Shown: positions 2,823 to 26,593, counted from the first letter of the stretch. The stretch is DNA of 32,000 nucleotides from Coprobacillaceae bacterium (GCA_963675915.1 OY780959.1:1590001-1622000); one strand, 5' to 3'. Notes: generated from the sequence alone by a model not told the origin. Made by a program: numbers and translations.

Positions 2823-5439
2823 AATATTTTTCAAGCTGTGCCATGATAGCGTCATATTTTGATTTGTAGTCGGCCAGTTTGGCTTTTTCTTCATTGACTT
2901 TGGCTTCAGGAGCTTTTGCCAGGAAGCGCTCATTGGAAAGCATTTTTTCACAACGGGCGATTTCGTTTTGCATTTTTTTGGCTTGGTCTTCAAGTTTCGC
3001 TTTTTCAGCTTCCTTGTCGACATAATCACCAAGTTCAACCACGATTGACTGACCGCCTTTGATGGTCACGATTGCCACATCATCACTGTGTTCAACATTG
3101 ACACCTTTGCAAGTCGAGTTGGTCAGTTTTTTGATATACAGATCAACTGACTGCAGCAATTCAGTAATATTGTCATCATTTGACTCAATCGAGTAAACCA
3201 CTTCGATGCTGTTTTTGATTGTATAGTTGGCACGGATATCACGGATACCTTTGATCACATCAATGACATATGCGAATTTGTCATTTACTTCATCATCATT
3301 GAAATCTTCATTCACTTCCGGATAAGAAGCGATTGTGATTGATTCTTCAAGATGCGGTAAAGTTTGGTAGATTTCTTCAGTCATGAACGGCATGAATGGG
3401 TGAAGCAGTCGGACGATTGAATTCATCACGTAAACAAGAGTGTTTTTAGTTGCTTCTTTTTCAGTTTCATTATCGCTGTTAAGATGTGCTTTGGCAAGCT
3501 CGATATACCAAGAACAGAAATCATCCCAGATGAACTGATGCAGAGTTGATCCGACAACTACGAATTCGAATTTTTCCATATTGGCATCGACTTCTTCGAT
3601 AACCTCATTCAAACGGTTCAAAATCCATTTGTCGCACAAGTTCAGGTTCTCAAATTTAAGGTCTTCATATTTAAGATCATCATCGATATTCATCAAGACA
3701 AAACGGGCTGAGTTCCAGATTTTGTTGATGAAGTTCCAAGCCGATTCCAGTTTGTCCGGAATGAAACGCAAATCCATCCCCGGAGCCGAGTTGGTAGTCA
3801 AAAAGTATCTCAGGGTGTCAGCGCCATATTGGTCGATAACATCCATCGGATCGATCCCGTTACCCAGGGATTTCGACATTTTAACCCCGTTGGCATCACG
3901 GATCAGACCATGAATCAACACGTCATTGAATGGGCGTTGATCGGTGAAGTGCAGTGATTGGAAAATCATTCTACTTACCCAGAAGAAGATGATGTCATAT
4001 CCGGTAACCAGCGTGTTGGTCGGGAAATAACGTTGGAACATCTCACTGTCGGTATTAGGCCACCCAAGCGTCGAGAAAGGCCACAGCGCTGAAGAGAACC
4101 AAGTATCCAGAACATCTTCATCCTGAGTGTAGTTTTCGATATCTTCAGGCGGATTTTTTGAGACAACGACTTCACCGGTTTCATTATGATACCAAGCCGG
4201 GATTCGATGACCCCACCATAACTGACGTGATACACACCAGTCTTCGATGTTTTCCATCCAATTGTTGAATGTTTTTTCAAAACGTTCCGGTACGAAACTT
4301 ACTTTGCCGTCAGTCTGTTGGTTAGCCAAAGAAGCTTCTGCCAATGGTTCCATTTTTACGAACCATTGTTTAGAAAGATATGGTTCGACAATCGCATCAG
4401 AACGTTCCGAATGTCCAACCTGATGGACTATTTCCTCGATATGGTCAACCACACCGGCTGCCTTGAAGTCCGCCAATAAGGCCTTACGACACTCAAAACG
4501 GTCCATTCCTTCATATTTGTGAGCCAATTCATTCATGGTTCCATCAGGATTCATACAGATTGGCATTCCAAGATCATATTTTTTACCTAAGATAAAGTCA
4601 TTAGGGTCATGGGCCGGAGTACATTTCATTACTGCAGTTCCAAAGTCCATGTCGATGTAATCATCAGCCATGATCGGCAACGCTTCACCGTTAGCCGGGT
4701 TGATTGCTTTTTTCCCGATAATATCCTGATATCTCTCATCATCAGGATGGACGAAAATCGCCGTATCCCCGAACATTGTTTCCGGACGGGTAGTCGCGAT
4801 AATCAGCTCGCGGTCATCTTCAGCCATTTTATATTTGAAATAATACATTGCTCCATTTACTTCTTTATGGATAACTTCGATATTTGAAAGAGCCGTTTTT
4901 TGAACCGGATCCCAGTTGATGATTCTTTCGCCACGGTACATCAGTCCTTCTTCGTAAAGTTTGACGAAGACTTCCGTTACCGCATCATTCAACCCTTGGT
5001 CAAGGGTGAATCTCTCTTTGGAATAATCGAGTGACAATCCCAATTTTTCCCATTGTTGGCGGATAATCGCCGCATACTCTTCTTTCCAAGCCCATGATTG
5101 TTCCAGGAACTTTTCACGACCGAGGTCATAACGGGAAATTCCCTGTTCACGCAGACGGGCATCTACTTTGGCCTGAGTTGCAATTCCGGCATGATCCATC
5201 CCCGGTAGCCATAAAGCATCATATCCTTGCATTCTTTTATGACGGATGATCATATCCTGAAGAGTAGTATCCCAGGCATGCCCCAAGTGCAATTTTCCGG
5301 TTACATTCGGTGGCGGAATAACGATTGAATAAGGTTTCTTGCTGGTGTCGCCAGCTTCGAAATACTTCTTCTCCAGCCATTCTTGATATTTTCCGGCTTC
5401 TACAGCCTTATGATCATATTTACTTGCTAATTGTTTCAT
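2821..5439 (-). CDS. valS: valine--tRNA ligase
   Basis: 872 aa with the HIGH motif ([14 protein letters not shown]), the KMSKS motif (KMSKSLGN) and the C-terminal coiled coil typical of ValRS. Confidence 0.98.
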
Positions 5440-5448
5440 AATTTCTCC

Positions 5449-6087
5449 TTAATTCTCGATAAATAACGAAGCATTTTCGCCCACATATTCATTGATAGTA
5501 CTCAAAAAAGCTTCCTGACGGATAAATGAGATCAACTCTTCTTTGAAGTCACTCAAATTATATGAAGAATACGCCCCTTCTTCGTTTTCCACATCAGTTT
5601 CCCCGACTGAATAACGATAATATTCGATTGCCTCAAAGAAGCAATCCTTAAGCTCGAATTGTTTGACATCGGTGAACAGTTCCTCAAGGTCTTTGACGAA
5701 CATCGAACCTTCTTGAGAGGTCATGAATCTTTCGATCGAACCTTTATGGGTAAGTTCCCGTTCCAACAGATAGAGACCGTAAATTTTTCGTTCCGGCTTG
5801 GTGATATAATCATGGAATGAAACATCCGGATCATCAATTTTAAAATATTCATCTTCCTTACTCATCAAATGATAAAGGATTACATGAGTATAATTCCCAT
5901 CAGGTGCATTTTCCAAGTCTTCCAAAGAAATCACCCGGTATTTTTCCTTCATCTGTTCGATAGTATCCATTGCGTCTTGACTTCTTTTCTTGGCCTTGGT
6001 ATATCTTTTCGCATAAAAAAGGACAACCCCAAGAACTACTACTGCTGTTAATGATAAAAATAATAAATCCTGCATCGCTGCGCTCAT
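5449..6087 (-). CDS. hypothetical N-terminally membrane-anchored protein (213 aa), co-transcribed with valS
   Basis: Start MSAAMQDLLFLSLTAVVVLGVVLF behind AGGAGG. Its TAA stop overlaps the valS Shine-Dalgarno (TAAGGAG). The 31 upstream codons in the ORF track are actually the T-box terminator. Confidence 0.75.
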   Translation of the reverse strand: MSAAMQDLLFLSLTAVVVLGVVLFYAKRYTKAKKRSQDAMDTIEQMKEKYRVISLEDLENAPDGNYTHVILYHLMSKEDEYFKIDDPDVSFHDYITKPERKIYGLYLLERELTHKGSIERFMTSQEGSMFVKDLEELFTDVKQFELKDCFFEAIEYYRYSVGETDVENEEGAYSSYNLSDFKEELISFIRQEAFLSTINEYVGENASLFIEN

Positions 6088-6102
6088 CGCTTTTTCCTCC
6101 TG

Positions 6103-6329
6103 AAATAAAAAAAGACCGTCCTGATAAGGACGATCATAATTATCGCGGTACCACCTTAATTCCTGCCGGTTCCCCGACAAGCTCTCAAAACCTTAACGCG
6201 GTCAAACGTGAAAACTTACTTAGGTTCAGTCTCCAGGCTCCTTGGCTACCTTCTTAAAGCTTCTCTCCTCTTTCACACCATCCAAGAGGTCTCTTTGAAA
6301 TCCACTTTAGTACTCCTCCAAATCATTGC
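6103..6329 (-). promoter_or_regulatory. T-box leader (tRNA-sensing riboswitch), probable Val specifier
   Basis: Minus strand contains the conserved T-box sequence AATTAAGGTGGTACCGCG (core at 6144-6155). It is followed by terminator GATCGTCC-TTATCA-GGACGGTC plus a T-run (6103-6135). Stem I has an AGAGA motif, and GUA sits at the 3-prime side of the putative specifier loop (GAAGGUAG). Confidence 0.85.
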
Positions 6330-6335
6330 CATATA

Positions 6336-6364
6336 ATTCTAACACGGAAAATTTGAAAAATCAA
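6336..6364 (-). promoter_or_regulatory. promoter of the T-box/valS operon
   Basis: Minus strand TTGATT (6364-6359), 17 nt, TAGAAT (6341-6336), preceded by a TG extended -10 element. Confidence 0.6.
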
Positions 6365-6367
6365 CGA

Positions 6368-6967
6368 CTAGTCGAAATTTACATCACATAAGTCATAGAT
6401 GGCTTGCCAAGCCTGATCGATTCCAACTTTTTTCAGTGAAGAAAAACGGATAAATCGGTCATTTTCATCGAAATCCAGTTTTTCTTTGATTCTTTTTTCA
6501 AACTTTTTCAGTTCGTTTCTTTTGATTTTGTCTTCTTTGGTCGCCACCACAATCACTGGAAGGTCGTAATATTTGACATACTCATACATCGTCACATCAT
6601 CATTGGTTGGAACATGACGGTAATCGACCAATAGAATCATCCCCTTGAGCGTTTTTCGCTTGGTGATATAAGTGTCAATCATCTTCCCGAACGATGCCTG
6701 GATGTGCTCCGGAACTTTGGCATAGCCGTATCCGGGAACATCGACGAATCGCAGTTCATCATTGACATTATAGAAGTTCAATGTCCGGGTTTTCCCGGGA
6801 TTAGATGAAACTTTTGCCAATCCGCTTCGATTAAGCATTGTATTGATGAATGAAGATTTTCCGACATTTGAGCGTCCTGCCAGACAGATTTCCGGAAGAT
6901 CCTCCTCAGGCCATTGCGACTCCCAGGCCGCCGACAAAATATATTCAGATTTTTTTATTTTAGCCAT
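6368..6967 (-). CDS. engB: ribosome biogenesis GTPase EngB/YsxC
   Basis: 199 aa with G1 motif GRSNVGKSS and DVPGYG. It lies downstream of lon, as in Bacillus. Confidence 0.95.
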   Translation of the reverse strand: MAKIKKSEYILSAAWESQWPEEDLPEICLAGRSNVGKSSFINTMLNRSGLAKVSSNPGKTRTLNFYNVNDELRFVDVPGYGYAKVPEHIQASFGKMIDTYITKRKTLKGMILLVDYRHVPTNDDVTMYEYVKYYDLPVIVVATKEDKIKRNELKKFEKRIKEKLDFDENDRFIRFSSLKKVGIDQAWQAIYDLCDVNFD

Positions 6968-7017
6968 ATTAACATCCTCGCTTTAAAGACAGTATAACAA
7001 TTAATTGGAAAAACACA

Positions 7018-7045
7018 AGAAAAAATCACTACACTAGGTAGTGAT
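7018..7045 (-). terminator. terminator or attenuator after lon
   Basis: Minus strand ATCACTAC-loop-GTAGTGAT followed by TTTTTC. Confidence 0.55.
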
Positions 7046-9363
7046 TATAAATACGCATGTTCAAAGACTGTATCGACATGTTCTGCCAATACGATTTCGA
7101 TTTCATCACGAACTTCTGATGGGATGTCTTCGATATCCTTCTCATTTTGAGATGGGATGATAATCTTCTTGATTCCTGAACGGTGAGCTGAGATTGCTTT
7201 TTCTTTCAATCCGCCAATGGCCAGAACGTCACCACGTAAAGTGATTTCTCCGGTCATCGCAATATCATCACGGACTAACTTACCGCTGAATGATGAATAG
7301 ATTGCTGTTGTCAAAGAAACTCCGGCACTAGGTCCATCTTTTTTAACCGCTCCTTCAGGAACGTGGATATGGATATCAAATTTATCGAATTCGATCCCTT
7401 CCAAATCGTATTTTTCGACATTGGCTTTCAGGTAATCCAGGGCAATCGATGCCGATTCCTTCATAACATCACCAAGTTGTCCGGTGATGATGAATTTCCC
7501 GGAACCTTTGAAGTGATTGACTTCTATTGGAAGAATATCTCCTCCGAATTGAGTCCACGCCAAGCCGGTAACAACACCGACTGTCGGTTCTTTTTGTTTC
7601 TTAGTATGGGTATATGGTGCTTTTGAAAGGATTCTTTCCAAATCTTCCACATCAACCGCAACACTTTCCTTACCATCTTTAAGGATTTCAAGGACTGCTT
7701 TACGGCAAACTTTGGCAAGCAGACGTTCAAGTGAACGAACTCCGGCCTCACGAGTATAATGACGAATGATTTCCATAATCGCCGCATCTGTGATGGTCAA
7801 CTGACCATCTTTAAGCCCATGCATTTCGCTTTGTTTTCTGATTAGATTGTTTTTGGCAATCATCAGTTTTTCCTGTTCGGTATAACTTGACAGTTCGATG
7901 ATTTCCAAACGGTCCAATAATGGTGCTGGTATGGTTCCCAGATCATTCGCAGTTGCAATGAACAGTACTTTTGACAAGTCATATGGTTCTTCCAGGTAGT
8001 TGTCCGAGAAGAAACTGTTTTGTTCTGGATCTAGAACTTCAAGCATGGCACTAGTAGGATCACCTTTGTAATCACTTGCCATTTTATCAATTTCATCAAG
8101 CAGGAATACCGGATTGACTACTCCGGCTTTTTTCATTGACTGAATGATTCTTCCCGGCATTGACCCCAGGTAAGTACGACGATGTCCACGGACTTCCGCT
8201 TCATCACGAACCCCACCGAGACTGGCTTTGACGAATTCACGTCCCAACGCTCTGGCAATCGATTTGGACAATGATGTTTTCCCGACACCCGGTGGCCCAG
8301 CCAGACAGATGATCGGTGCTTTCAATGATTTGGTCATTTGTTTTACTGCAAGATGTTCGATGATTCTTTCTTTTACTTTTTCAAGTCCGTAGTGATCTTC
8401 ATCAAGAACAACCTGCACATGGTTGATATCTTCGATATCTTCAGTTTCCTGATACCAAGGGATTTTCATCATCCAGTCGATATAGTTGCGGACAACGTTC
8501 GACTCGGAACTTGCCTGAGGCATCGCTTCAAAACGACGGAGTTCCTCAAGGATTTTTTTCTTGATATGGTCAGGGTATGGGTTTTCTTCCAGTTCCTTAC
8601 GGATATAACTTGCGTCATCTTCCTTGTCAACTGTATCACCCAACTCTTCACGAATAGCTTTTAGCTTTTCACGAAGATAGAATTCCCGCTGGTTCTCATC
8701 AACTGATTCACGAACTTTGCGGTTGATTTCTTCCTCGATCAATGTGATTGAACTTTCTTGTTCCACTGTTTGAGCAACAAGCAACAAACGTTCATTGATA
8801 TTGAATGTTTCTAAGATGTTTTGTTTTCTTTGTAAACTACAAGGAAGGTACATAGCCAGGGTGTCCGCCAATTCACTTGGACTCACTCCGCCTTCCAATC
8901 TGTTGATTGCAACAGTCGGCATATGAGGCAGATATTTCTGACTTTCCTGGAAATATTGGGTCAGTTTACGTACCAACGCAACTTCTTCGTCACCATTTCC
9001 ACGAACATCTTCCACAATTTCCCCGTTGGCATAGATTGTCTCATCGGTGAATTCATAGTTCGATACTTTGAAACGTTCGACACCTCTCACAGTGACTCTG
9101 ATAGAGCCCTGAGTGGCACGACGGATCTTTTTGGAAATTTTACATAAAGTAGCTGTGTAATATACGTCTTGTTCGGTAGGATTTTCTACTACGGGGTCGA
9201 TTTGGGAAACCATGATAATGTTATCCTCAAAATCGTCATGTGCTTGCTCAACCGCTTCTAATGAAAGTGGGCGGCCGACATCTAACGTTAACTTATTGTT
9301 AGGATAAACAATCATTCCACGAGTAAAGATTACCGGGTATCTAAGTGTTGTTTGTTCACTCAT
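7045..9363 (-). CDS. lon: ATP-dependent Lon protease
   Basis: 772 aa with Walker A GPPGVGKTSL and the protease serine motif DGPSAG. Confidence 0.98.
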   Translation of the reverse strand: MSEQTTLRYPVIFTRGMIVYPNNKLTLDVGRPLSLEAVEQAHDDFEDNIIMVSQIDPVVENPTEQDVYYTATLCKISKKIRRATQGSIRVTVRGVERFKVSNYEFTDETIYANGEIVEDVRGNGDEEVALVRKLTQYFQESQKYLPHMPTVAINRLEGGVSPSELADTLAMYLPCSLQRKQNILETFNINERLLLVAQTVEQESSITLIEEEINRKVRESVDENQREFYLREKLKAIREELGDTVDKEDDASYIRKELEENPYPDHIKKKILEELRRFEAMPQASSESNVVRNYIDWMMKIPWYQETEDIEDINHVQVVLDEDHYGLEKVKERIIEHLAVKQMTKSLKAPIICLAGPPGVGKTSLSKSIARALGREFVKASLGGVRDEAEVRGHRRTYLGSMPGRIIQSMKKAGVVNPVFLLDEIDKMASDYKGDPTSAMLEVLDPEQNSFFSDNYLEEPYDLSKVLFIATANDLGTIPAPLLDRLEIIELSSYTEQEKLMIAKNNLIRKQSEMHGLKDGQLTITDAAIMEIIRHYTREAGVRSLERLLAKVCRKAVLEILKDGKESVAVDVEDLERILSKAPYTHTKKQKEPTVGVVTGLAWTQFGGDILPIEVNHFKGSGKFIITGQLGDVMKESASIALDYLKANVEKYDLEGIEFDKFDIHIHVPEGAVKKDGPSAGVSLTTAIYSSFSGKLVRDDIAMTGEITLRGDVLAIGGLKEKAISAHRSGIKKIIIPSQNEKDIEDIPSEVRDEIEIVLAEHVDTVFEHAYL

Positions 9364-9381
9364 AAGTTTTCCTCCTTGTTT

Positions 9382-9403
9382 AAAAAGACGCCTTAGCGTC
9401 TTT
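9382..9403 (-). terminator. hairpin plus T-run between tig and lon
   Basis: Minus strand GACGC-TAAG-GCGTC followed by TTTTTAAAC. Confidence 0.45.
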
Positions 9404-9410
9404 GGATTAT

Positions 9411-10697
9411 TTACTTCTTAAGGTTGTCTCTTACTAATTCAAGAGCTTTTCTTGTAAGTAAATCAGACTCTAAACGGTCCATGTTATTTGCGAAGATGTT
9501 TTTAACTTCTTCTAACTCTCTTTGGTATGTATCAGCGATCATTTGTAATTCAGCTTCAATTTCTTCAGCTGTATTTTCCAAACCTTCAGCTTTTACGATT
9601 TGTGCCAAGATAGCATTTAATTTGAATCTGTCAACTGCTTGTGGACGAACGTTTTGAGCGATCACATCTTTTGATTGACCAGTGAATTGTTCATATAATT
9701 CAAAGTTCATTCCTTGTTGTTGCAGGTTCATTTCGATTTCTTGTAATAATTGTTGAACTTCACCTTCGATCATCGCAGCAGATTCTTCTACTTTTGAGTT
9801 TTCGATGATTGCTTTGAATAAATCTTCATTGAATTTGTTTTCAACTTCTGATTCTTTACGAGTAGTCAAATCTTTTTGAACATGTTCTTTAAGTTGATCT
9901 AAAGTATCAACACCATCGATGTTTACATCTTTAGCTAATTCATCATCGATTTCAGGTAATGTTTTTGATTTGATATCAATTACTTTACATTTGAAAGTAG
10001 CTTCTTTACCAGCCAGGTTTTCAGCACCGTAATTTTCAGGGAAAGTTACAACTACGTCTTTTTCTTCTCCAGATTTAAGACCTACTAATTGATCTTCGAA
10101 TCCTGGGATGAATGATCCTGAACCGATTTCCAATGGATAAGCTTCACCTTTTCCACCTTCGAATGCTTCACCATCAACGAAACCTTCGAAATCGATTGTT
10201 GCAGTATCTCCAGTTTCAACTGCACCGTCTTCAGCTTTAACTGCTAATTCAGCGAATTGTTCTTGGTAGTTTTTCAATGCTGCTTCGATATCTTCAGCAG
10301 TCACTTCTACTTCACCTTTGGCAACTTCTAAATCTTTGTATTGTCCAAGTTCTACTTCTGGTAAAACTGGTACATTGATTACGATTGTCACACCTTCATC
10401 ATTAAGGCTTTCAATATTTACAGCAGGTTGAGCAATTGGAGCGATATTATTGTCCATCAATGCTTTTGAGTAATTTGCTGACAATAATGCATCGATTGCT
10501 TCTTGTTGGATTGAAGCATCAGAAATTTTAGAACGCACTAATTGTTTTGGTGCTTTCCCATCTCTGAATCCGTCAACTTTAACGTTTTTTGCTAATTTGT
10601 CAACTGCTGCTTCTTTAGCTGCAGTCCATTCTTCTTTATCAAAAGAAATTTTCACTTCTGTGATTGCGTTTTCTAATCTTTTAATGCTTGTGTTCAT
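9411..10697 (-). CDS. tig: trigger factor
   Basis: 428 aa with an acidic composition. It has the FKBP-type region (DFEGFVDGEAFEGGKGE) and typical tig-lon synteny. Promoter TTGAAT-17-TATAAT lies just upstream. Confidence 0.97.
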   Translation of the reverse strand: MNTSIKRLENAITEVKISFDKEEWTAAKEAAVDKLAKNVKVDGFRDGKAPKQLVRSKISDASIQQEAIDALLSANYSKALMDNNIAPIAQPAVNIESLNDEGVTIVINVPVLPEVELGQYKDLEVAKGEVEVTAEDIEAALKNYQEQFAELAVKAEDGAVETGDTATIDFEGFVDGEAFEGGKGEAYPLEIGSGSFIPGFEDQLVGLKSGEEKDVVVTFPENYGAENLAGKEATFKCKVIDIKSKTLPEIDDELAKDVNIDGVDTLDQLKEHVQKDLTTRKESEVENKFNEDLFKAIIENSKVEESAAMIEGEVQQLLQEIEMNLQQQGMNFELYEQFTGQSKDVIAQNVRPQAVDRFKLNAILAQIVKAEGLENTAEEIEAELQMIADTYQRELEEVKNIFANNMDRLESDLLTRKALELVRDNLKK

Positions 10698-19853: not shown

Positions 19854-20167
19854 TTATTTTGAATTTAATGCAATACCACAAATATCATTATCAGAATCAC
19901 CTGAAATAATTAATTCAACCTCGGATCCATGACCATTATAATCTTCAATTTTTTGCTATTATCAATATAATTATATTGATAAACAATTATATCTTCGTAT
20001 TTACTTTGCTAAAGGCCATATAGATCAGAATCAATTATTGCAATTATTTGTGCTTATCCTGTTACATTATTGTGTAGTTGTTCAACACCGACGAATTCCT
20101 CATACCATTTGCAATTAATCGGTTCGCTACAACCTGAGATTAAAATCAAATTCAAACACATATATAG
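19854..20167 (-). pseudogene. lipoprotein gene, 3-prime part (interrupted by transposon and carrying premature stops)
   Basis: It continues the signal peptide begun at 23516: ...MCLNLILISGC|SEPINCKWYEEF. It then has an in-frame TAA, an in-frame TAG and a frame change before the final ...GHGSEVELIISGDSDNDICGIALNSK. Confidence 0.6.
20162..20167. repeat. target-site duplication, left copy (ATATAG)
   Basis: Identical hexamer at 23481-23486, directly abutting both terminal inverted repeats. Confidence 0.8.
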
Positions 20168-20191
20168 TGTAGCTAGTCAATTTATTTGATG
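20168..20191. repeat. terminal inverted repeat, left
   Basis: TGTAGCTAGTCAATTTATTTGATG. The reverse complement of 23457-23480 is TGTAGCTAGCCATTTTATTTGATG. Confidence 0.88.
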
Positions 20192-20313
20192 GATGATTCT
20201 TCAAATTATATGGGCCTTCTTTTGGTCCTTTTTTGATGTTCTTCAAATTAATTGAATGGGATATTCAGTTTATTTGAAATGATGTTTTAGAGGAGAAAGA
20301 AAATAATCGCCTG

Positions 20314-20622
20314 TTAGACGATTATCCCTGACTCGTTTAATTTGTAGATGGCTTGTGATATGGCTTCGCTGCTGATTGGATCTATCTCGCGCAATAGAGC
20401 TGACTTGTTCCAAAATTTGTCTTTGAAATATGATAGTTCCAGTCCCAGCTTCATCAACGGGATGCAAATCCAGTTTCCTTTGGCTGATTTACCTACTATC
20501 ACTTCGATTTCATTGCCGTCATATCTTAGCTGGAATTCACACTTATCTGGGTTTTGCGAGACTATTACTATCTCGTTGGCCCATGTTTTTTCATCATAGT
20601 TGCAGAAGTATTCGATTATCAA
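20314..20622 (-). CDS. orphan 102-aa transposon protein
   Basis: A TTG start overlaps the ATPase stop (TTGA). No recognisable motif: MIIEYFCNYDEKTWANEIVIVSQNPDKCEFQLRYDGNEIEVIVGK... Confidence 0.65.
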   Translation of the reverse strand: MIIEYFCNYDEKTWANEIVIVSQNPDKCEFQLRYDGNEIEVIVGKSAKGNWICIPLMKLGLELSYFKDKFWNKSALLREIDPISSEAISQAIYKLNESGIIV

Positions 20623-21422
20623 ATTACTACCTCTTCGATTGTTTCTAGGATTAAATCGGAATCAATTACTTCGATTTTTCTGATTGCTCCGATAAACATT
20701 GCCCGGTCGCATATCCGATCAATAACCCGACAGGTGCCGTTGGATGCATTGATGATTGCTTCAATGGCATTGTCGTTGAACACTTCTTGAATTGTTTTTC
20801 CGCCTTGGAGCTTGTCTTTGATATAAGCAAGACTTTCAGTTTTGTTTAACGGCTCCAGTTTGTAATTGATAATCATTCGCTGACGCAGTGGTTCATGAGC
20901 GGTCAATTTAAGGTTCCTGGTTATTGTCGGCAATCCGACCATCAAGACTACCGCATGATCCTTGGAATCCATATCAAAATTGAAGATCATCTTCAAATCA
21001 TTAAGAATGGCGTTATTCATGTAATTACATTCATCAAAGATAAACACCGGGGTAATCCTTTTTTCGTAAATCAACTGGTTTATGGCTGATTGGATCTCCC
21101 TGAACAGATCATTCTTTCGATACCGAGGAGTCAAATCCAGCGACTCAGCCAGTTGCATATAGAATTCCTTGACTGTAAGGGTCGACATTGACAAATAAAT
21201 TATCTTGTAAGCTGATTTGGGGAGTGTTTTGATATAGTTCCTGATCATGGTTGTTTTGCCATGTCCAGGTTCACCGACTATTAGTCCGAAACCTTTGATT
21301 TCAAAAAGGCTGTTAAGGCGTACTTTCAATTCCTGGTATTCACTTGTTTCAATAAATAAATTCTTTGAGTTCTTGATAAACGGATTGAATTCCAATCCGT
21401 ATCTGGTCCAATATTTTTCCAT
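20619..21422 (-). CDS. ExeA/TniB-type AAA+ ATPase (transposition helper)
   Basis: N-terminus MEKYWTRYGLEFNPF (ExeA-like GL..PF), Walker A GEPGHGKTT, Walker B VFIFDECN. The ATG overlaps the transposase stop (TAATG). Confidence 0.9.
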   Translation of the reverse strand: MEKYWTRYGLEFNPFIKNSKNLFIETSEYQELKVRLNSLFEIKGFGLIVGEPGHGKTTMIRNYIKTLPKSAYKIIYLSMSTLTVKEFYMQLAESLDLTPRYRKNDLFREIQSAINQLIYEKRITPVFIFDECNYMNNAILNDLKMIFNFDMDSKDHAVVLMVGLPTITRNLKLTAHEPLRQRMIINYKLEPLNKTESLAYIKDKLQGGKTIQEVFNDNAIEAIINASNGTCRVIDRICDRAMFIGAIRKIEVIDSDLILETIEEVVI

Positions 21423-22669
21423 TAATCTTCTCCTCCGCATAATTTTGGCTGCACTCGTTTTACTTTTGAATTAGCGTTTTTATCAAGTAGGTGAATCCGT
21501 TCCAGTTCGCCGGTATTCTTGTTAACTATATAGACGTTTTCCAAGTCCGGAGTATATCGGAACATATGCCTTTCACCAGAATAGATATAATCAATCTCGT
21601 ATTCCCGATTATCTATTTTGATTACCGAATCAGTACTGACAGACCGCTCTACTTCGAACAGGAAAGTATTGTCGATAAAGTCATCATCAAGCCTTTTGAT
21701 CAGATTGCTTTCCTGAAAAAAACGTTGATGAGGTGTCAATCCATTCAAAGACGAATGCACCTTGTTGTTGTAATCATTGATGAACTGGCTTAAATCCTGC
21801 TTCAAACCTTCTAGATTGTTTGTGTAATCTTTTATGTTTATTTGGGCGAAGAACTGATCTTTAATCGTCCGAAACACCCGCTCAATTTTTGATTTTCCTT
21901 CCGGCGAGTACGGTTTGCAGTAGCTGATGGTTGAATTAATCCTTGCTGCAATCATCTTGATCTGGTGATTTCGATAATTGGAGCCGTTGTCAAACCTGAA
22001 CATCTCAGGAACTCCATATTTTGTTACCGCACTTTTCATAGTATCCATCAAATTGACTGTGTTGTCATTCAAATACAAATCAAGATGGACGATCATCCTT
22101 GAAGCATCATCAATCAGGGCAATCATATAAGTTCGGTTTTTCTTGCCATTAATGGTTATGTAAGGACCGACCGAACTGTCACCAGCCCAGTTCATATTGA
22201 TATGGGGCACTTCGTAGCGGCGCATGTCTTTCTTGTTTGATAGACGCAATTCCGACTTTATCTGATTGACACATCGATTAACGGTTGATAGCGAAACATC
22301 AGTTTTCTTGATGATTCCCTTTTCAATCAACTTGCCGTAAATTACAGTTGCCGGCAATCTAGGATAGGTTGTCTTATAATATTTGATTGTTTCAACGATG
22401 TCATCATCCAGTCTTCTTGACTTGCCACAATCACTTCGCTTTTGAGGAATCAATCCATCGAAGCCTTTCTCTTCGTAAGCAGCAATCCACCTGGAGATGG
22501 TACTGCTTGAGACAGTGAAATCACGGTTGTCGAAACTCTTATAGACTTTCTTGGTAGCTTCCGTAATCGCCTGATTCTTAGACCATGCAGCATCGTAATT
22601 TCCGGTAATGATGTCATGAATGATCCGATGGCGCATCAACGCTACGTATTCTTGTTCTTTTTTATCCAT
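21422..22669 (-). CDS. DDE (retroviral-integrase fold) transposase, MuA/TnsB/TniA/IstA-like
   Basis: 415 aa with N-terminal HTH regions. The catalytic triad candidates are WAGDSS, RFDNGS and, about 35 residues later, GKSKIER. The C-terminal beta-barrel-like segment is VSTDSVIKIDNREYEI...MFRYTPDLENVYIV. SD is GGAGG. Confidence 0.93.
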   Translation of the reverse strand: MDKKEQEYVALMRHRIIHDIITGNYDAAWSKNQAITEATKKVYKSFDNRDFTVSSSTISRWIAAYEEKGFDGLIPQKRSDCGKSRRLDDDIVETIKYYKTTYPRLPATVIYGKLIEKGIIKKTDVSLSTVNRCVNQIKSELRLSNKKDMRRYEVPHINMNWAGDSSVGPYITINGKKNRTYMIALIDDASRMIVHLDLYLNDNTVNLMDTMKSAVTKYGVPEMFRFDNGSNYRNHQIKMIAARINSTISYCKPYSPEGKSKIERVFRTIKDQFFAQINIKDYTNNLEGLKQDLSQFINDYNNKVHSSLNGLTPHQRFFQESNLIKRLDDDFIDNTFLFEVERSVSTDSVIKIDNREYEIDYIYSGERHMFRYTPDLENVYIVNKNTGELERIHLLDKNANSKVKRVQPKLCGGED

Positions 22670-22717
22670 ATAATACCTCCGTCACCCACTATATACTAAT
22701 AGAATCGATTATTTAAC

Positions 22718-23272
22718 TCATCCTATGTGGTTGATGGTATACAGGATATTTATGGTATTTCTACATTGCATGAACTGCATCAAATAATTTGAAAAACAAC
22801 TTTCAACAAGTTGGTTAATATCATTTGATTCAATTCTCAACGACATCAAACGTTGCTGCCAAACATTGATATACCTGCTCACAACATTATAAATTTCACA
22901 CTCAGACATATAGGGATTTCGATCAAGAATGGCTTTTAATAGTTTCTGATTATTTTTATGTATGGAAATCTCAACTTGAACAGCCAACGGGATACTTGAA
23001 TATGGAACCAAACATGAAAGAAGAATTGCGTGGGTTCTGCCACAATCCTTACATCTTAGCCGCATTATTCTCAAATTAAAAAAGCCAAAAGGCAGTTTCA
23101 CCCTTCGGTTATAATAACCATGAATTATGAAATTGCCCTGGCAGTCACCAGCGCAACTCAAGGAAAAACGATTGATATTGGAAACCAATTCATTATAATA
23201 GGCCTGGAGTTTGGCCCGCGAATCAATCTTCATCAATTTATTATTGATTTTTACTCCGTGATACGTTATCAT
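22718..23272 (-). CDS. Cys4 zinc-ribbon protein (DUF6431-like), first gene of the transposon
   Basis: SCAGDC...HGYYNRRV...RLRCKDCGRTHAILLSCLVPYSS matches my recollection of the DUF6431 pattern. The start is uncertain: ATG 23272 is chosen, and the ORF is open to TTG 23386. Confidence 0.65.
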   Translation of the reverse strand: MITYHGVKINNKLMKIDSRAKLQAYYNELVSNINRFSLSCAGDCQGNFIIHGYYNRRVKLPFGFFNLRIMRLRCKDCGRTHAILLSCLVPYSSIPLAVQVEISIHKNNQKLLKAILDRNPYMSECEIYNVVSRYINVWQQRLMSLRIESNDINQLVESCFSNYLMQFMQCRNTINILYTINHIG

Positions 23273-23456
23273 ATTCTTGTCTATATGGCAAATGAGAGAA
23301 ACTGCTTGGTGGTGGCGTCTCTCATTTTTTCTTTCTCTAGATTTATTACCAATAAAATAACAAAGCAAAAGGTCAATCTCAAGCAATTTGAAGAAAAATT
23401 CATCAAATTATTTGGAATTGACCTTTATTTATTATGACTAGATTATGGTTAGATGG

Positions 23457-23480
23457 CATCAAATAAAATGGCTAGCTACA
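23457..23480. repeat. terminal inverted repeat, right
   Basis: CATCAAATAAAATGGCTAGCTACA, the partner of 20168-20191. Confidence 0.88.
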
Positions 23481-23486
23481 ATATAG
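23481..23486. repeat. target-site duplication, right copy (ATATAG)
   Basis: Identical to 20162-20167. Confidence 0.8.
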
Positions 23487-24255: not shown

Positions 24256-25827
24256 CTATGATTTTTTAGTGATATACAGTTCTTTTGGCAGTTTTGCCCA
24301 CGGCATTACTGTTTCCAATGATTTTTCATCAGTTATATCCAGATCCGGCAAACGGTCTAGGATATACTGGAAATAATCATATGGTTTGAGATTGTTCATT
24401 TTGGCTGACTCAACCAAGCTGTAAATGTAGGAACTGCTATTGGCACCTTTAACTGTATTCATAAACAGCCAATTCTTGCGGCCGACAGTGAACGGTCTGA
24501 TGATGTTTTCAGCTGCATTGTTGCTGATATCTATTCTCCCATCACTAATATATGTTCTCAACTTTGATTCTTGATTGTAAGCATAGTTGATTGCTTCGCC
24601 TAAATGAGATTTAGGTAGAGCAACCTTTTTAAGTTCATGGATTTTTTTGAAGAATTCATTCACTTTCTTCAATGACTTTTCCTGCCGAATTTTGGTCAGT
24701 TTGTCATAATCGCAATCTTTGTGCTTTCTCTCTATGGCGAACAGCTCGTTGATCATTGCGAAACATTTATATGTCTCGGTAGACTCAAGATTGACATTTT
24801 TAGGAACCAGATCCAAAGCTTCTTTGAATTTCCTTCTAGCATGAGCCCAACAACCTGCCTGAGTTACACCTTCGACTTTGTCATATGCCTGGTAACCGTC
24901 TGATATCAAAACTCCTTTGAAATCTTCAAGGTAATTAACGGCGTGCTTATGGGCGCGGCTTGGCTCGTAGTTAAACAGTACGTATTGATTGGCTTCGCTT
25001 CTGCCAGTCATATAGACCCACATGTATGATTTCGATGATGCCGCTTTACCTGGTTCATGTAGCACTTGGACGCTGGTCTCATCGGCATTGATATACTGGG
25101 CCTTCATCAGCTGTTTATACATGTAGTCAATCAATGGTTTGAAGTAGTTATTTGATACCCTGATCAGCCAGTTTGACATGTTCTGACGATTCAGATTGAT
25201 CCTCATTCTTTGATAGGAAACTTCCTGACGGTATAACGGCAACGATTTGACATACTTGTCATTGATGATATTTGCCACCAGTGAAGCTGAAGCAATGCTA
25301 CCGCTGATCAATGGCGTTGGTCCATTAGCTTTGATAATGGTTGCTTCGATGTCGTTCTTCTCGCAATTGCGGCAGCTGTAGATGTGTTCGACATGATTAA
25401 TCACTTCCACTTTGGCAGGAACGAAAATAAGTTCTTTGCGAACTTTTTTCGACATCTCATGCAATTCATGATTGCATTTAGGACAAACCTTTTCATCAGC
25501 ACTCAAAACATAATCAATCGTAGTGTTCTTCAAGGAATCCAAATCCATAATTCTTGATTTCTTTTTGCGCTTATGAGATTTTACTTCGGTGATATTTGAT
25601 TCATCATTGATCGGTGTTGATTCAAATTCAATCTCATCAAACAAAGACAACTGATCAACATGAACTTTTTCAGACGATTGACCAAACAATTTCTTCTGCT
25701 GCAGTCTGACCTGTTCCTTGTACCAGCTGTTCTCTTGAGATAATTGTTCTACTTTTGTATGTAAAGCCATGTAGGATTTTTCTAATTCCTCACGTGACAT
25801 TTTCTTGATATTAACGGTATTTTTCAT
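24256..25827 (-). CDS. tnpC: IS66-family transposase TnpC
   Basis: 523 aa with an N-terminal coiled coil, a zinc finger (CPKCNHELHE...CRNC) and the DDE region (INADETSVQVL). Confidence 0.95.
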   Translation of the reverse strand: MKNTVNIKKMSREELEKSYMALHTKVEQLSQENSWYKEQVRLQQKKLFGQSSEKVHVDQLSLFDEIEFESTPINDESNITEVKSHKRKKKSRIMDLDSLKNTTIDYVLSADEKVCPKCNHELHEMSKKVRKELIFVPAKVEVINHVEHIYSCRNCEKNDIEATIIKANGPTPLISGSIASASLVANIINDKYVKSLPLYRQEVSYQRMRINLNRQNMSNWLIRVSNNYFKPLIDYMYKQLMKAQYINADETSVQVLHEPGKAASSKSYMWVYMTGRSEANQYVLFNYEPSRAHKHAVNYLEDFKGVLISDGYQAYDKVEGVTQAGCWAHARRKFKEALDLVPKNVNLESTETYKCFAMINELFAIERKHKDCDYDKLTKIRQEKSLKKVNEFFKKIHELKKVALPKSHLGEAINYAYNQESKLRTYISDGRIDISNNAAENIIRPFTVGRKNWLFMNTVKGANSSSYIYSLVESAKMNNLKPYDYFQYILDRLPDLDITDEKSLETVMPWAKLPKELYITKKS

Positions 25828-25859
25828 ATCTAGATTATACCAAAAAATCGGCCAAGTTA

Positions 25860-26219
25860 CTAGATAATAAGCCGATTTTCCATGTTTTTAAATGCATATT
25901 TTTGATCGATTTCAAGGCCCTCGAGCAACCAGCGAAACTGTCTTTCATCAATGACTCTGGTGTTTGAATTCTCATCTTCACGAACCTTGAACTTTCCGCT
26001 TTCAAGCCGTTTGAGAAACAGCCAAAACCCACCATTTTCGTAATAAAGAATCTTCATCCTGTTGCGAGCCCGGTTGACAAAAATGAACAAGCTGCCGTTC
26101 ATCACATCCAAATCAAACTCCATGGCCACTATCAAAGACAAACCATCGATTGACTTGCGCATGTCGACATGTCCAGTGGCAAGATAAATATGTTTGACAT
26201 CATCAGTGTTGATAATCAT
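25860..26219 (-). CDS. tnpB: IS66 Orf2 (TnpB)
   Basis: 119 aa. The segment IYLATGHVDMRKSIDGLSLIV is the conserved IS66 Orf2 signature. Confidence 0.93.
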   Translation of the reverse strand: MIINTDDVKHIYLATGHVDMRKSIDGLSLIVAMEFDLDVMNGSLFIFVNRARNRMKILYYENGGFWLFLKRLESGKFKVREDENSNTRVIDERQFRWLLEGLEIDQKYAFKNMENRLII

Positions 26220-26509
26220 TTGATAGCCCCAATCACTTTACAAAGCAGAGACTCATCAAATGTCAGTTCCACATCGTTGACAGTGATTGTAATCTTCCTG
26301 GTGGGATTGTCAATCAATACCGGGGCGAAGAAACGGCCATCAGACTTAACCGGTTGGCTGAGTTCATCAGTATCAATGATCTTACGCCATTTATAAAACG
26401 AATTCTTGTTGATCCCATTTTCCATGCACCAACGGCTAATGGATTTCCCGGAAATCCGCCAATTTTTAACTAGACCATTCCAATAATCATAACGCTCTTG
26501 AGCATTCAT
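26216..26509 (-). CDS. tnpA: IS66 Orf1 (TnpA, HTH protein)
   Basis: 97 aa with an HTH (GKSISRWCMENGINKNSFYKWRK). It has an ATGA overlap with Orf2. Confidence 0.85.
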   Translation of the reverse strand: MNAQERYDYWNGLVKNWRISGKSISRWCMENGINKNSFYKWRKIIDTDELSQPVKSDGRFFAPVLIDNPTRKITITVNDVELTFDESLLCKVIGAIK

Positions 26510-26571
26510 AAAAAGTACCTCCTGTTATAACTTACAACGAAATTATAACCCGAGGCACTAAATTTTAAAAC

Positions 26572-26593
26572 GTGTCATCTATTTGACGCTTAC
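26572..26593. repeat. IS66 terminal inverted repeat (tnpA side)
   Basis: See 24159-24180. Confidence 0.85.

Follow-up and report, generated by a model that had tools for sequence, protein, structure and literature searches.

A compact transposon with a DUF6431-DDE-AAA+ core operon from Coprobacillaceae and its probable place among ATPase-assisted insertion sequences

The element described here lies in a 32,000-nucleotide stretch of DNA from a Coprobacillaceae bacterium (GCA_963675915.1, OY780959.1:1590001-1622000), which is referred to in its entirety as the window. Positions 20168-23480 of the window very probably represent an intact transposon of the insertion sequence (IS) type, a member of a large family that is built on the core operon DUF6431-DDE-AAA+ and would rely on its ATPase for transposition in the manner outlined below. 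It transposes as a single unit, with a TGT...ACA inverted repeat at each end, and duplicates 6 bp of target DNA. A reading made from the sequence alone, before this analysis, had described a discrete and seemingly recently active transposon that encodes a DDE transposase and an AAA+ helper. That description is supported by the evidence presented here, and the element is apparently active.

Boundaries, copies, and insertion sites

The element is an intact copy of 3,313 bp, and family members range from 3.0 to 3.5 kb. Its gene-distal (right) terminal inverted repeat opens with TGT on the plus strand at 20168-20191 (TGTAGCTAGTCAATTTATTTGATG), and the gene-proximal (left) repeat occupies 23457-23480 on the minus strand, with the reverse complement TGTAGCTAGCCATTTTATTTGATG. 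The two 24-nucleotide repeats (TGT...ACA) share 22 of their 24 nucleotides. A degenerate 24-mer that covers both occurs at only these two places in the window, compared to an expectation of 0 from shuffled sequences. Immediately outside the repeats, the hexamer ATATAG is present as two copies of a target-site duplication, at 20162-20167 and 23481-23486. Direct inspection of the sequence therefore bears out both the near-perfect TGT...ACA repeats and the perfect 6-bp duplication of the sequence-only reading. The repeat consensus, TGTWGA..GYCAAATTA, is recognizable across sub-lineages.

The same boundaries are found in other copies (loci other than the window carry L numbers). A copy with 90.8% identity is present in a Coprobacillaceae genome (L001, OY776328.1, positions 5190-8504). 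It aligns to window positions 23480-20166 and no further, so that the similarity stops exactly at the terminal repeats, and it is flanked by a 6-bp duplication of its own, CTGAAG. The L001 copy also seems to split another rve-type transposase gene, with the helix-turn-helix (HTH) part upstream (4842-5198) and the catalytic part downstream (8523-9569). Joining the flanks of the window insertion site restores no convincing open reading frame (ORF).

Relatives with about 50% transposase identity occur as near-identical multiple copies, six in one Clostridium butyricum genome and five in Helicovermis profundi, and the sequence shared among these copies stops exactly at TGT/TAT...ACA/ATA termini. 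Altogether, perfect 6-bp duplications flank 11 insertions from five sub-lineages. For three of the Helicovermis insertions, the uninterrupted paralogous target, a group II intron, contains the duplicated hexamer only once. One C. butyricum copy has a duplication of possibly 7 bp. The 11 duplicated hexamers share no common consensus, the sites are scattered, and none matches NCTAGN. The dinucleotide TA (mostly cTA) stands directly 5′ of the duplication in five of the 11 insertions (L005, L007, L008, L011, and L013).

Two C. butyricum copies on JABFUH010000001.1 (L002 and L003) have swapped half-duplications, ATTGAC/CGTTAT and CGTTAT/ATTGAC, which implies a putative chromosomal inversion of ~650 kb by recombination between inverted copies. 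Three of the four copies examined in Helicovermis profundi AP028654.1 (L008, L010, and L011) are located inside copies of one group II intron, and two of these insertions, at ACATAC and TATAGC, share an orientation and are separated by only 23 bp. These insertions suggest either a regional target preference or a tolerance of insertion in repeated mobile DNA.

The end regions also contain repeated motifs. Two subterminal direct repeats, TTCTTCAAATTA, are found on the plus strand at 20197-20208 and 20239-20250 and are candidate protein-binding sites. The motif TTCWTCAAATTR has four exact matches in the 32-kb window, where shuffled sequences predict 0.12, and all of them fall within ~100 bp of the element ends. 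Two belong to the right-end direct repeats just described, and the other two form the arms of a palindrome at the left end. L001 retains one TTCWTCAAATTR site at the same position. The palindrome itself is imperfect, ~59 bp in length with 28-nucleotide arms (23368-23426), and is located 55-113 bp inside the left end, upstream of orf1, where it holds both left-end copies of the motif. In L001, L016, C. butyricum (L002), Helicovermis (L008), and L048, too, there is a palindrome at the equivalent place, ~45-125 bp in from the left end and upstream of orf1. The subterminal repeats and the left-end palindrome are thus candidate sites for the transposase or the DUF6431 protein.

The breadth of the family was assessed through protein searches, look-ups of the encoding contigs, tblastn against plasmids, and a metagenome scan. 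Transposase homologs form 2,219 clusters at 90% identity (E <= 1e-10), many of them on contigs of ~3 kb, as expected of a repeat that breaks assemblies. The hosts belong to Bacillota and Pseudomonadota. Annotated plasmids of Clostridium estertheticum, Geobacillus, Sporosarcina, and Cupriavidus carry the genes in the order DUF6431, DDE, ATPase at 28-36% transposase identity. The C. estertheticum plasmid element carries DUF6618 as well, the Geobacillus transposase is named "IS481 family" by the annotation pipeline PGAP, and the Sporosarcina plasmid has a DUF6431 ORF that is nevertheless missing from the PLSDB gene table. Searches at the nucleotide level and for single proteins returned much less. 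No match to the whole element was obtained by blastn against plasmid and phage records, a genome-contig scan with a single protein query yielded one close locus, and an exact look-up of P0121 found no record.

Gene order was surveyed with custom hidden Markov models (HMMs) on six-frame ORFs of 88 independent loci, 80 of them from the metagenome scan. DUF6431 is encoded upstream of the transposase in 68-71 of the 71 loci that have room for a gene; the three apparent misses result from the distance criteria or from transposase genes that are fragmented. The ATPase gene lies downstream of the transposase in ~66 of 72 loci, and the misses are mostly truncated copies. The conserved core consists of three genes, DUF6431, DDE, and AAA+, and the fourth position is variable. 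The search for inverted repeats and duplications in the 80 metagenome loci was noisy, with many contigs ending inside the element or showing chimeric flanks; metagenome ends were accepted with a TGT start, at least 18 of 22 matches, and an exact duplication.

Core proteins and the variable fourth gene

The element contains four ORFs, all on the minus strand. The stop codon of the transposase gene overlaps the ATPase start within TAATG (21420-21424, minus strand), and that of the ATPase gene overlaps the orf4 start within TTGA (20619-20622, minus strand), just as the sequence-only reading had described for its four same-strand ORFs. The 1-nucleotide stop-start overlap of the transposase and ATPase genes is conserved among relatives. 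Between diverged copies, the ratio of nonsynonymous to synonymous substitution rates (dN/dS) is 0.01-0.03 for the transposase and the ATPase, 0.06-0.08 for DUF6618, and 0.11-0.24 for DUF6431. Purifying selection acts on each of the four ORFs (overall dN/dS range 0.01-0.24), most strongly on the ATPase.

The transposase is encoded by orf2 (21422-22669, minus strand). It is a DDE (rve) protein of 415 residues with an N-terminal HTH and a C-terminal extension of the Mu/TnsB/IstA type. The catalytic residues Asp164, Asp227, and Glu263 are invariant in the family alignment. Its best NCBIfam model is IS481 (NF033577), with a score of 170.6 bits against a cut-off of 224 bits and coverage of residues 49-317 only. 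Relatives score from 147 to 255 bits, and only the Geobacillus protein (255 bits) exceeds the cut-off. About 100 residues at the C-terminus extend beyond the IS481 model. A search of the PDB with the family profile identifies ShCAST TnsB as the best match (E = 7e-25, positions 48-388), and the second solved structure is IS21 IstA (8b4h, E = 8e-13). The protein also matches phrog_310, a transposase family of transposable phages (E = 1e-51), and aligns with Tn552 p480 over residues 10-380 (hhalign probability 99.7%, 25% identity; BLASTP E = 5e-20). Several relatives match the models for the C-terminal domain of Mu transposase (PF09299 and PF22483). These comparisons show that the transposase combines an IS481-like catalytic core with a C-terminal extension of the Mu/TnsB/Tn552 type. 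The basic C-terminal tail, conserved at Asn400 and Arg405 (NSKVKR in the window protein), is a candidate for contacting the ATPase if MuA and TnsB are taken as a guide.

The orf3 product (20619-21422, minus strand) is an AAA+ ATPase of the MuB/Tn552 p271/TniB/TnsC type (AAA_22, E = 4e-20). Translation starts at the ATG at 21422, which gives a protein of 267 residues, equal in length to its relatives. In the alignment, the Walker A motif GEPGHGKT has invariant Gly53, Gly55, Lys56, and Thr57, the Walker B motif has invariant Asp130 and Glu131, and Asn148, Arg182, and Arg232 are invariant as well. The best PDB match to the ATPase profile is MuB (8xvb, E = 3.8e-8), aligned over nearly the full length, followed by Cdc6 and TnsC proteins, and the phage family phrog_296, "DNA transposition protein", matches with E = 2.5e-25. 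The hhalign probabilities rank Tn552 p271 first (97.5%; BLASTP E = 1e-11), followed by TniB (84.6%) and IstB (28.7%); the IstB alignment spans 29 columns in the Walker A region only. In the Pfam search, the window ATPase has no match to IstB_IS21 (PF01695). These results place the protein in the MuB/Tn552 p271/TniB/TnsC group and outside the DnaC-like IstB group. The sequence-only reading had assigned an ExeA/TniB type; the TniB part of that assignment holds, together with MuB, Tn552 p271, and TnsC, and ExeA does not stand as a function.

The first gene, orf1 (22718-23272, minus strand), encodes a DUF6431 protein (PF20020) of 184 residues, in which a Cys4 zinc ribbon precedes a helical C-terminal half. 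The most likely start is the ATG at 23272, as in all homologs, rather than a codon further upstream. Alignments identify Cys40, Cys44, Cys74, and Cys77 as the zinc-ribbon residues. Weak matches are found to Zn_ribbon_ISL3 and to the N-terminal parts of the transposase models for ISH6 and ISL3, and the Cupriavidus member weakly matches HTH_28 and HTH_Tnp_ISL3. An exhaustive search gathers 596 DUF6431 clusters, almost all of which are stand-alone proteins, mostly of 150-250 residues. A profile search of the PDB with DUF6431 gives nothing meaningful. Similarity to TniQ is not detected: none of 33 members matches PF06527 at E <= 1, and hhalign assigns a probability of 0.1% to the alignment with Tn402 TniQ. 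Domain-model searches of the four ORFs likewise reveal neither a resolvase domain nor a TnsA-like nuclease domain, and the element has no space for another gene. The sequence-only reading had recognized no resolvase, TnsA, or TniQ, and their absence is supported by domain searches, and for TniQ by hhalign as well.

The fourth gene, orf4 (20314-20622, minus strand), encodes a DUF6618 protein of 102 residues (PF20323, E = 3e-7) and occupies an accessory slot that varies among lineages. A PDB profile search yields no solved relative of DUF6618, and PADLOC finds no membership in a defense system. The HMM scan detects DUF6618 behind the ATPase in 13 of 55 family loci. This figure is a lower bound because the fourth slot of L022 (6028-6366) encodes a divergent DUF6618 protein of 112 residues that falls under the HMM threshold; it shares the C-terminal D.FWNTE region and aligns with an hhalign probability of 91.8%. 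Elsewhere the slot after the ATPase is empty or contains unrelated small ORFs, and DUF6618 is missing from the C. butyricum and Helicovermis elements. The fourth gene thus appears to be a dispensable accessory or passenger in a variable slot. The sequence-only reading had proposed a unit of four genes, and had noted that copies without the two accessory ORFs would make these passengers. Its three larger genes survive as the core, its 102-residue orphan proves to be DUF6618 in a variable position, and the passenger label applies to DUF6618, which other lineages lack, and not to the zinc ribbon, which is core. A terminator-like hairpin at the end of orf4 (20300-20328, minus strand) was identified by consensus scan only, and promoter and terminator scans of the element give consensus matches only.

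In six otherwise dissimilar lineages, the slot protein ends in an acidic stretch followed by [LIV/A]PF. The loci are L012 (5050-5307), L015 (5158-5355), L065 (from 6051), L067 (from 6059), L086 (from 3129), and L090 (from 3174), and the tails read, in order, ..VTEAPF, ..NELDLPF, ..EEEELPF, ..EEKELPFS, ..DEEDVPF, and ..YEELVPF. The C-terminal tip of SSB, ..DDDIPF, recruits PriA, RecQ, ExoI, and the chi subunit. By analogy, the acidic-PF slot proteins may connect the product of transposition with replication restart or repair by the host. The DUF6618 protein of the window ends in ..NESGIIV and has no acidic-PF tail.

A further copy of the element (L104, 2255-5505; ENA ERZ21878193, ctg6212l) encodes a transposase identical to that of the window. 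It is a mosaic or recombinant, because it differs from the window copy much more strongly in the left-end region and in the initial ~55 codons of DUF6431 than elsewhere in the element. The outermost ~66 bp of its left end are replaced by a copy of IS66. An IS66-family element is also found beside the transposon in the window, at 24256-26593 (TnpC, 24256-25827; TnpB, 25860-26219), and two stretches of this region, 24339-26593 and 25414-26593, match with 100% identity the IS66 segments on either side of the L104 copy, in inverted orientation. The DNA around the element is AT-rich (GC 0.31) and contains many mobile elements.

Comparison with known systems and proposed mechanism

The sequence features fit those of the ATPase-assisted DDE transposons, in which an rve transposase with a Mu-type C-terminal domain is encoded next to an ATPase of the MuB/TnsC/TniB type. 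Tn552 shares much of this design with the element. Its p480 transposase is homologous over almost the full length, its p271 ATPase is homologous and nearly equal in size (271 versus 267 residues), the transposase gene precedes and overlaps the ATPase gene, the duplication belongs to the 6-bp class, and the hosts are Bacillota. Tn552 differs in its long terminal repeats and in the resolvase BinL and bla cargo, neither of which is present here. It also has no DUF6431, whereas an upstream DUF6431 is obligatory in this family of 3.0-3.5-kb elements. With Mu and B3, the element has in common MuB as the best ATPase structure, transposable-phage families as matches of the transposase and of the ATPase ("DNA transposition protein"), and TG...CA ends. 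A 6-bp duplication is described as the footprint of B3/Tn552-family transposases (PMC8705779). The element is no phage, however, and measures ~3.3 kb compared to ~37 kb. Mu produces a 5-bp duplication and has the small DNA-binding genes ner and c upstream of its A and B genes. A small DNA-binding gene, in the present element a putative one, precedes an A/B-type pair in both, but as far as tested DUF6431 has no relation to Ner or to the Mu repressor.

The Tn7-like and CRISPR-associated transposons and Tn5053/Tn402 provide the best structural match for the transposase (TnsB) and detectable relatives of the ATPase (TnsC and TniB), and they too are built from three proteins, including a small one that binds zinc. 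The present element differs in gene order, in having no TnsA, TniQ, or resolvase, and in having no attachment-site or guide-RNA machinery. Target duplications of the Tn7-like and Tn5053 elements are 5 bp, as opposed to 6 bp in all 11 verified insertions here. IS21 is likewise a small IS with a DDE transposase and a helper ATPase, but it has two genes, a DnaC-like IstB, and no DUF6431. IS481 elements consist of a single gene and measure ~1-1.3 kb. The IS481 model is the best transposase-family HMM for the HTH and catalytic core, and the TGT termini and the 6-bp duplication are similar, yet the HMM score is below cut-off, there are three or four genes, an extra C-terminal region is present, and no preference for CTAG targets is seen. 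IS481 elements have TGT...ACA ends and a short duplication, often of 6 bp with the form NCTAGN. The sequence-only reading had held the element apart from IS21, Tn552, Tn5053, and Tn7, and a defining feature of each is indeed lacking.

The genes have been encountered before. A "repetitive gene cassette" of DUF6431, DDE, and AAA ATPase genes is present in 15 copies in Clostridium sp. JS66, where it borders a 63-kb deletion (bioRxiv 10.64898/2026.08.16.744336), and a locus table for Ruminococcus gnavus is the other literature trace. Neither source names a family or proposes a mechanism, and the literature searched yielded no other description; ISfinder and TnCentral were outside the search. The sequence-only reading had seen an organization that matches no classical family. 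No formal description was found, but the genes are annotated in RefSeq under DUF names and the JS66 cassette has been noted once. The architecture is formally undescribed rather than unseen.

In the mechanism that we favor, the transposase would bind the terminal and subterminal repeats, nick the 3′ ends, and join them to the target with a 6-bp stagger. The ATP-bound ATPase would coat or mark target DNA and activate the transposase, as MuB and TnsC do. A copy-type route would then most likely process the product, through replication or repair of a Shapiro intermediate or through copy-out-paste-in of the IS3/IS481 style. Such a route seems likelier than cut-and-paste because there is no TnsA-like nuclease and no resolvase, and because some genomes contain 5-15 near-identical copies. 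DUF6431 would act at the left-end palindrome and the subterminal repeats. It is most likely a sequence-specific DNA-binding subunit with a part in assembly or in the control of expression, although this is the least certain step of the mechanism. We favor an end-, operator-, or assembly-binding role because the protein is universally kept, is encoded first, and resembles the DNA-binding heads of transposases.

Several points count against this scheme. Two copies in L011 (4174-7218 and 9685-11245) are inverted and only ~2.5 kb apart, which is unexpected under strong target immunity of the Mu/Tn7 type. The IS-sized contigs examined contain no circle or tandem end junction. The family is known from sequence alone. 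The role of DUF6431 is deduced only from weak domain similarity and gene position, and the subterminal motif TTCWTCAAATTR was chosen post hoc. Structure prediction offers no help, as the AlphaFold models of DUF6431 and DUF6618 have pLDDT values of 46.3 and 45.0 and are unusable. Their alignments are shallow because word-index searches found few close relatives (three for DUF6431 and five for DUF6618). Finally, the family may already be catalogued in ISfinder or TnCentral.

Other explanations accommodate part of the evidence. DUF6431 could be the equivalent of TniQ/TnsD, a zinc-ribbon adaptor that reads the target and recruits the ATPase, so that the element would be a minimal TniA-TniB-TniQ-type transposon with a replaced selector. 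The homology of the transposase and ATPase to TnsB/TniA and TnsC/TniB agrees with this idea, as do the universal retention of DUF6431, its faster evolution relative to its partners, and the frequent insertion into other mobile DNA (the Helicovermis group II introns and the L001 transposase gene). Type V-K CRISPR-associated transposons, moreover, have small zinc-finger TniQ proteins of similar size. We nonetheless consider a TniQ equivalent unlikely: no similarity to TniQ is detectable by hhalign (0.1%), PF06527 (0 of 33), or PDB profile search, DUF6431 is encoded first and not after the ATPase, and the 11 hexamers lack a consensus, are scattered, and measure 6 rather than 5 bp.

Still less probable is an ordinary IS481-family IS whose transposase works alone, with DUF6431, the ATPase, and DUF6618 as passengers. 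Among NCBIfam models, IS481 matches best (170.6 bits for the window protein; the Geobacillus relative, at 255, passes 224), TGT ends and 6-bp duplications are found in IS481 too (PMC6794481), and IS481 members with passenger genes are known. Several observations speak against it. The order of the triad is constant across phyla and from 28% to 97% transposase identity, the transposase/ATPase overlap is conserved, and the ATPase is under the strongest purifying selection of the four and is specifically related to transposition ATPases. The C-terminal extension is typical of ATPase-assisted transposases, the window protein scores under the IS481 cut-off, and none of the 11 duplications is NCTAGN. 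The matches to phrog_310 and phrog_296, both proteins of transposable phages, could point to the remnant of a Mu/B3-like transposable prophage in which only the A/B transposition module is left, but we give this explanation almost no weight. Inverted repeats and duplications of its own mark the element as a complete unit of 3.0-3.5 kb, which exists in many copies. It has no phage genes, 2.9 million viral contigs contain only 13 relatives, blastn against phage records is empty, and a remnant is contradicted by the exact boundaries and the empty-site comparisons.

Implications

With the ATPase-assisted, three-gene transposon as the favored reading, we tentatively raise a broader one, which is possible but goes well beyond it: that this is an unclassified, widespread IS family and the simplest ATPase-assisted transposon, forming a bridge from IS481/IS3 to Tn552, Mu, and Tn7. 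DUF6431 would be its obligatory third component, as an end-binding or regulatory protein or as a selector other than TniQ, and the slot proteins would serve as interchangeable interfaces to the host. If so, the SSB-like acidic-[LIV]PF tails that several of them carry could attract host factors for replication restart or repair to the product of strand transfer.

No DNA-insertion machines are better understood or more engineered than ATPase-assisted transposons such as Mu, Tn7, and the CRISPR-associated transposons, all of which are large and composed of many parts. The present element is a natural minimal version of the ATPase-assisted type, with ~3 kb and three proteins, from a family that is plentiful in Bacillota of the gut and the environment and extends to Proteobacteria. 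It would offer a compact model for the AAA+ coupling of target capture to a DDE transposase, for what substitutes for TnsA or a resolvase, and for the job of DUF6431. For genome annotation, thousands of "DDE-type integrase / AAA family ATPase / DUF6431" triplets amount to one mobile element. It is also an element that drives rearrangements, as seen in the 63-kb deletion of JS66 (bioRxiv 10.64898/2026.08.16.744336) and in the C. butyricum inversion inferred from reciprocal flanks.

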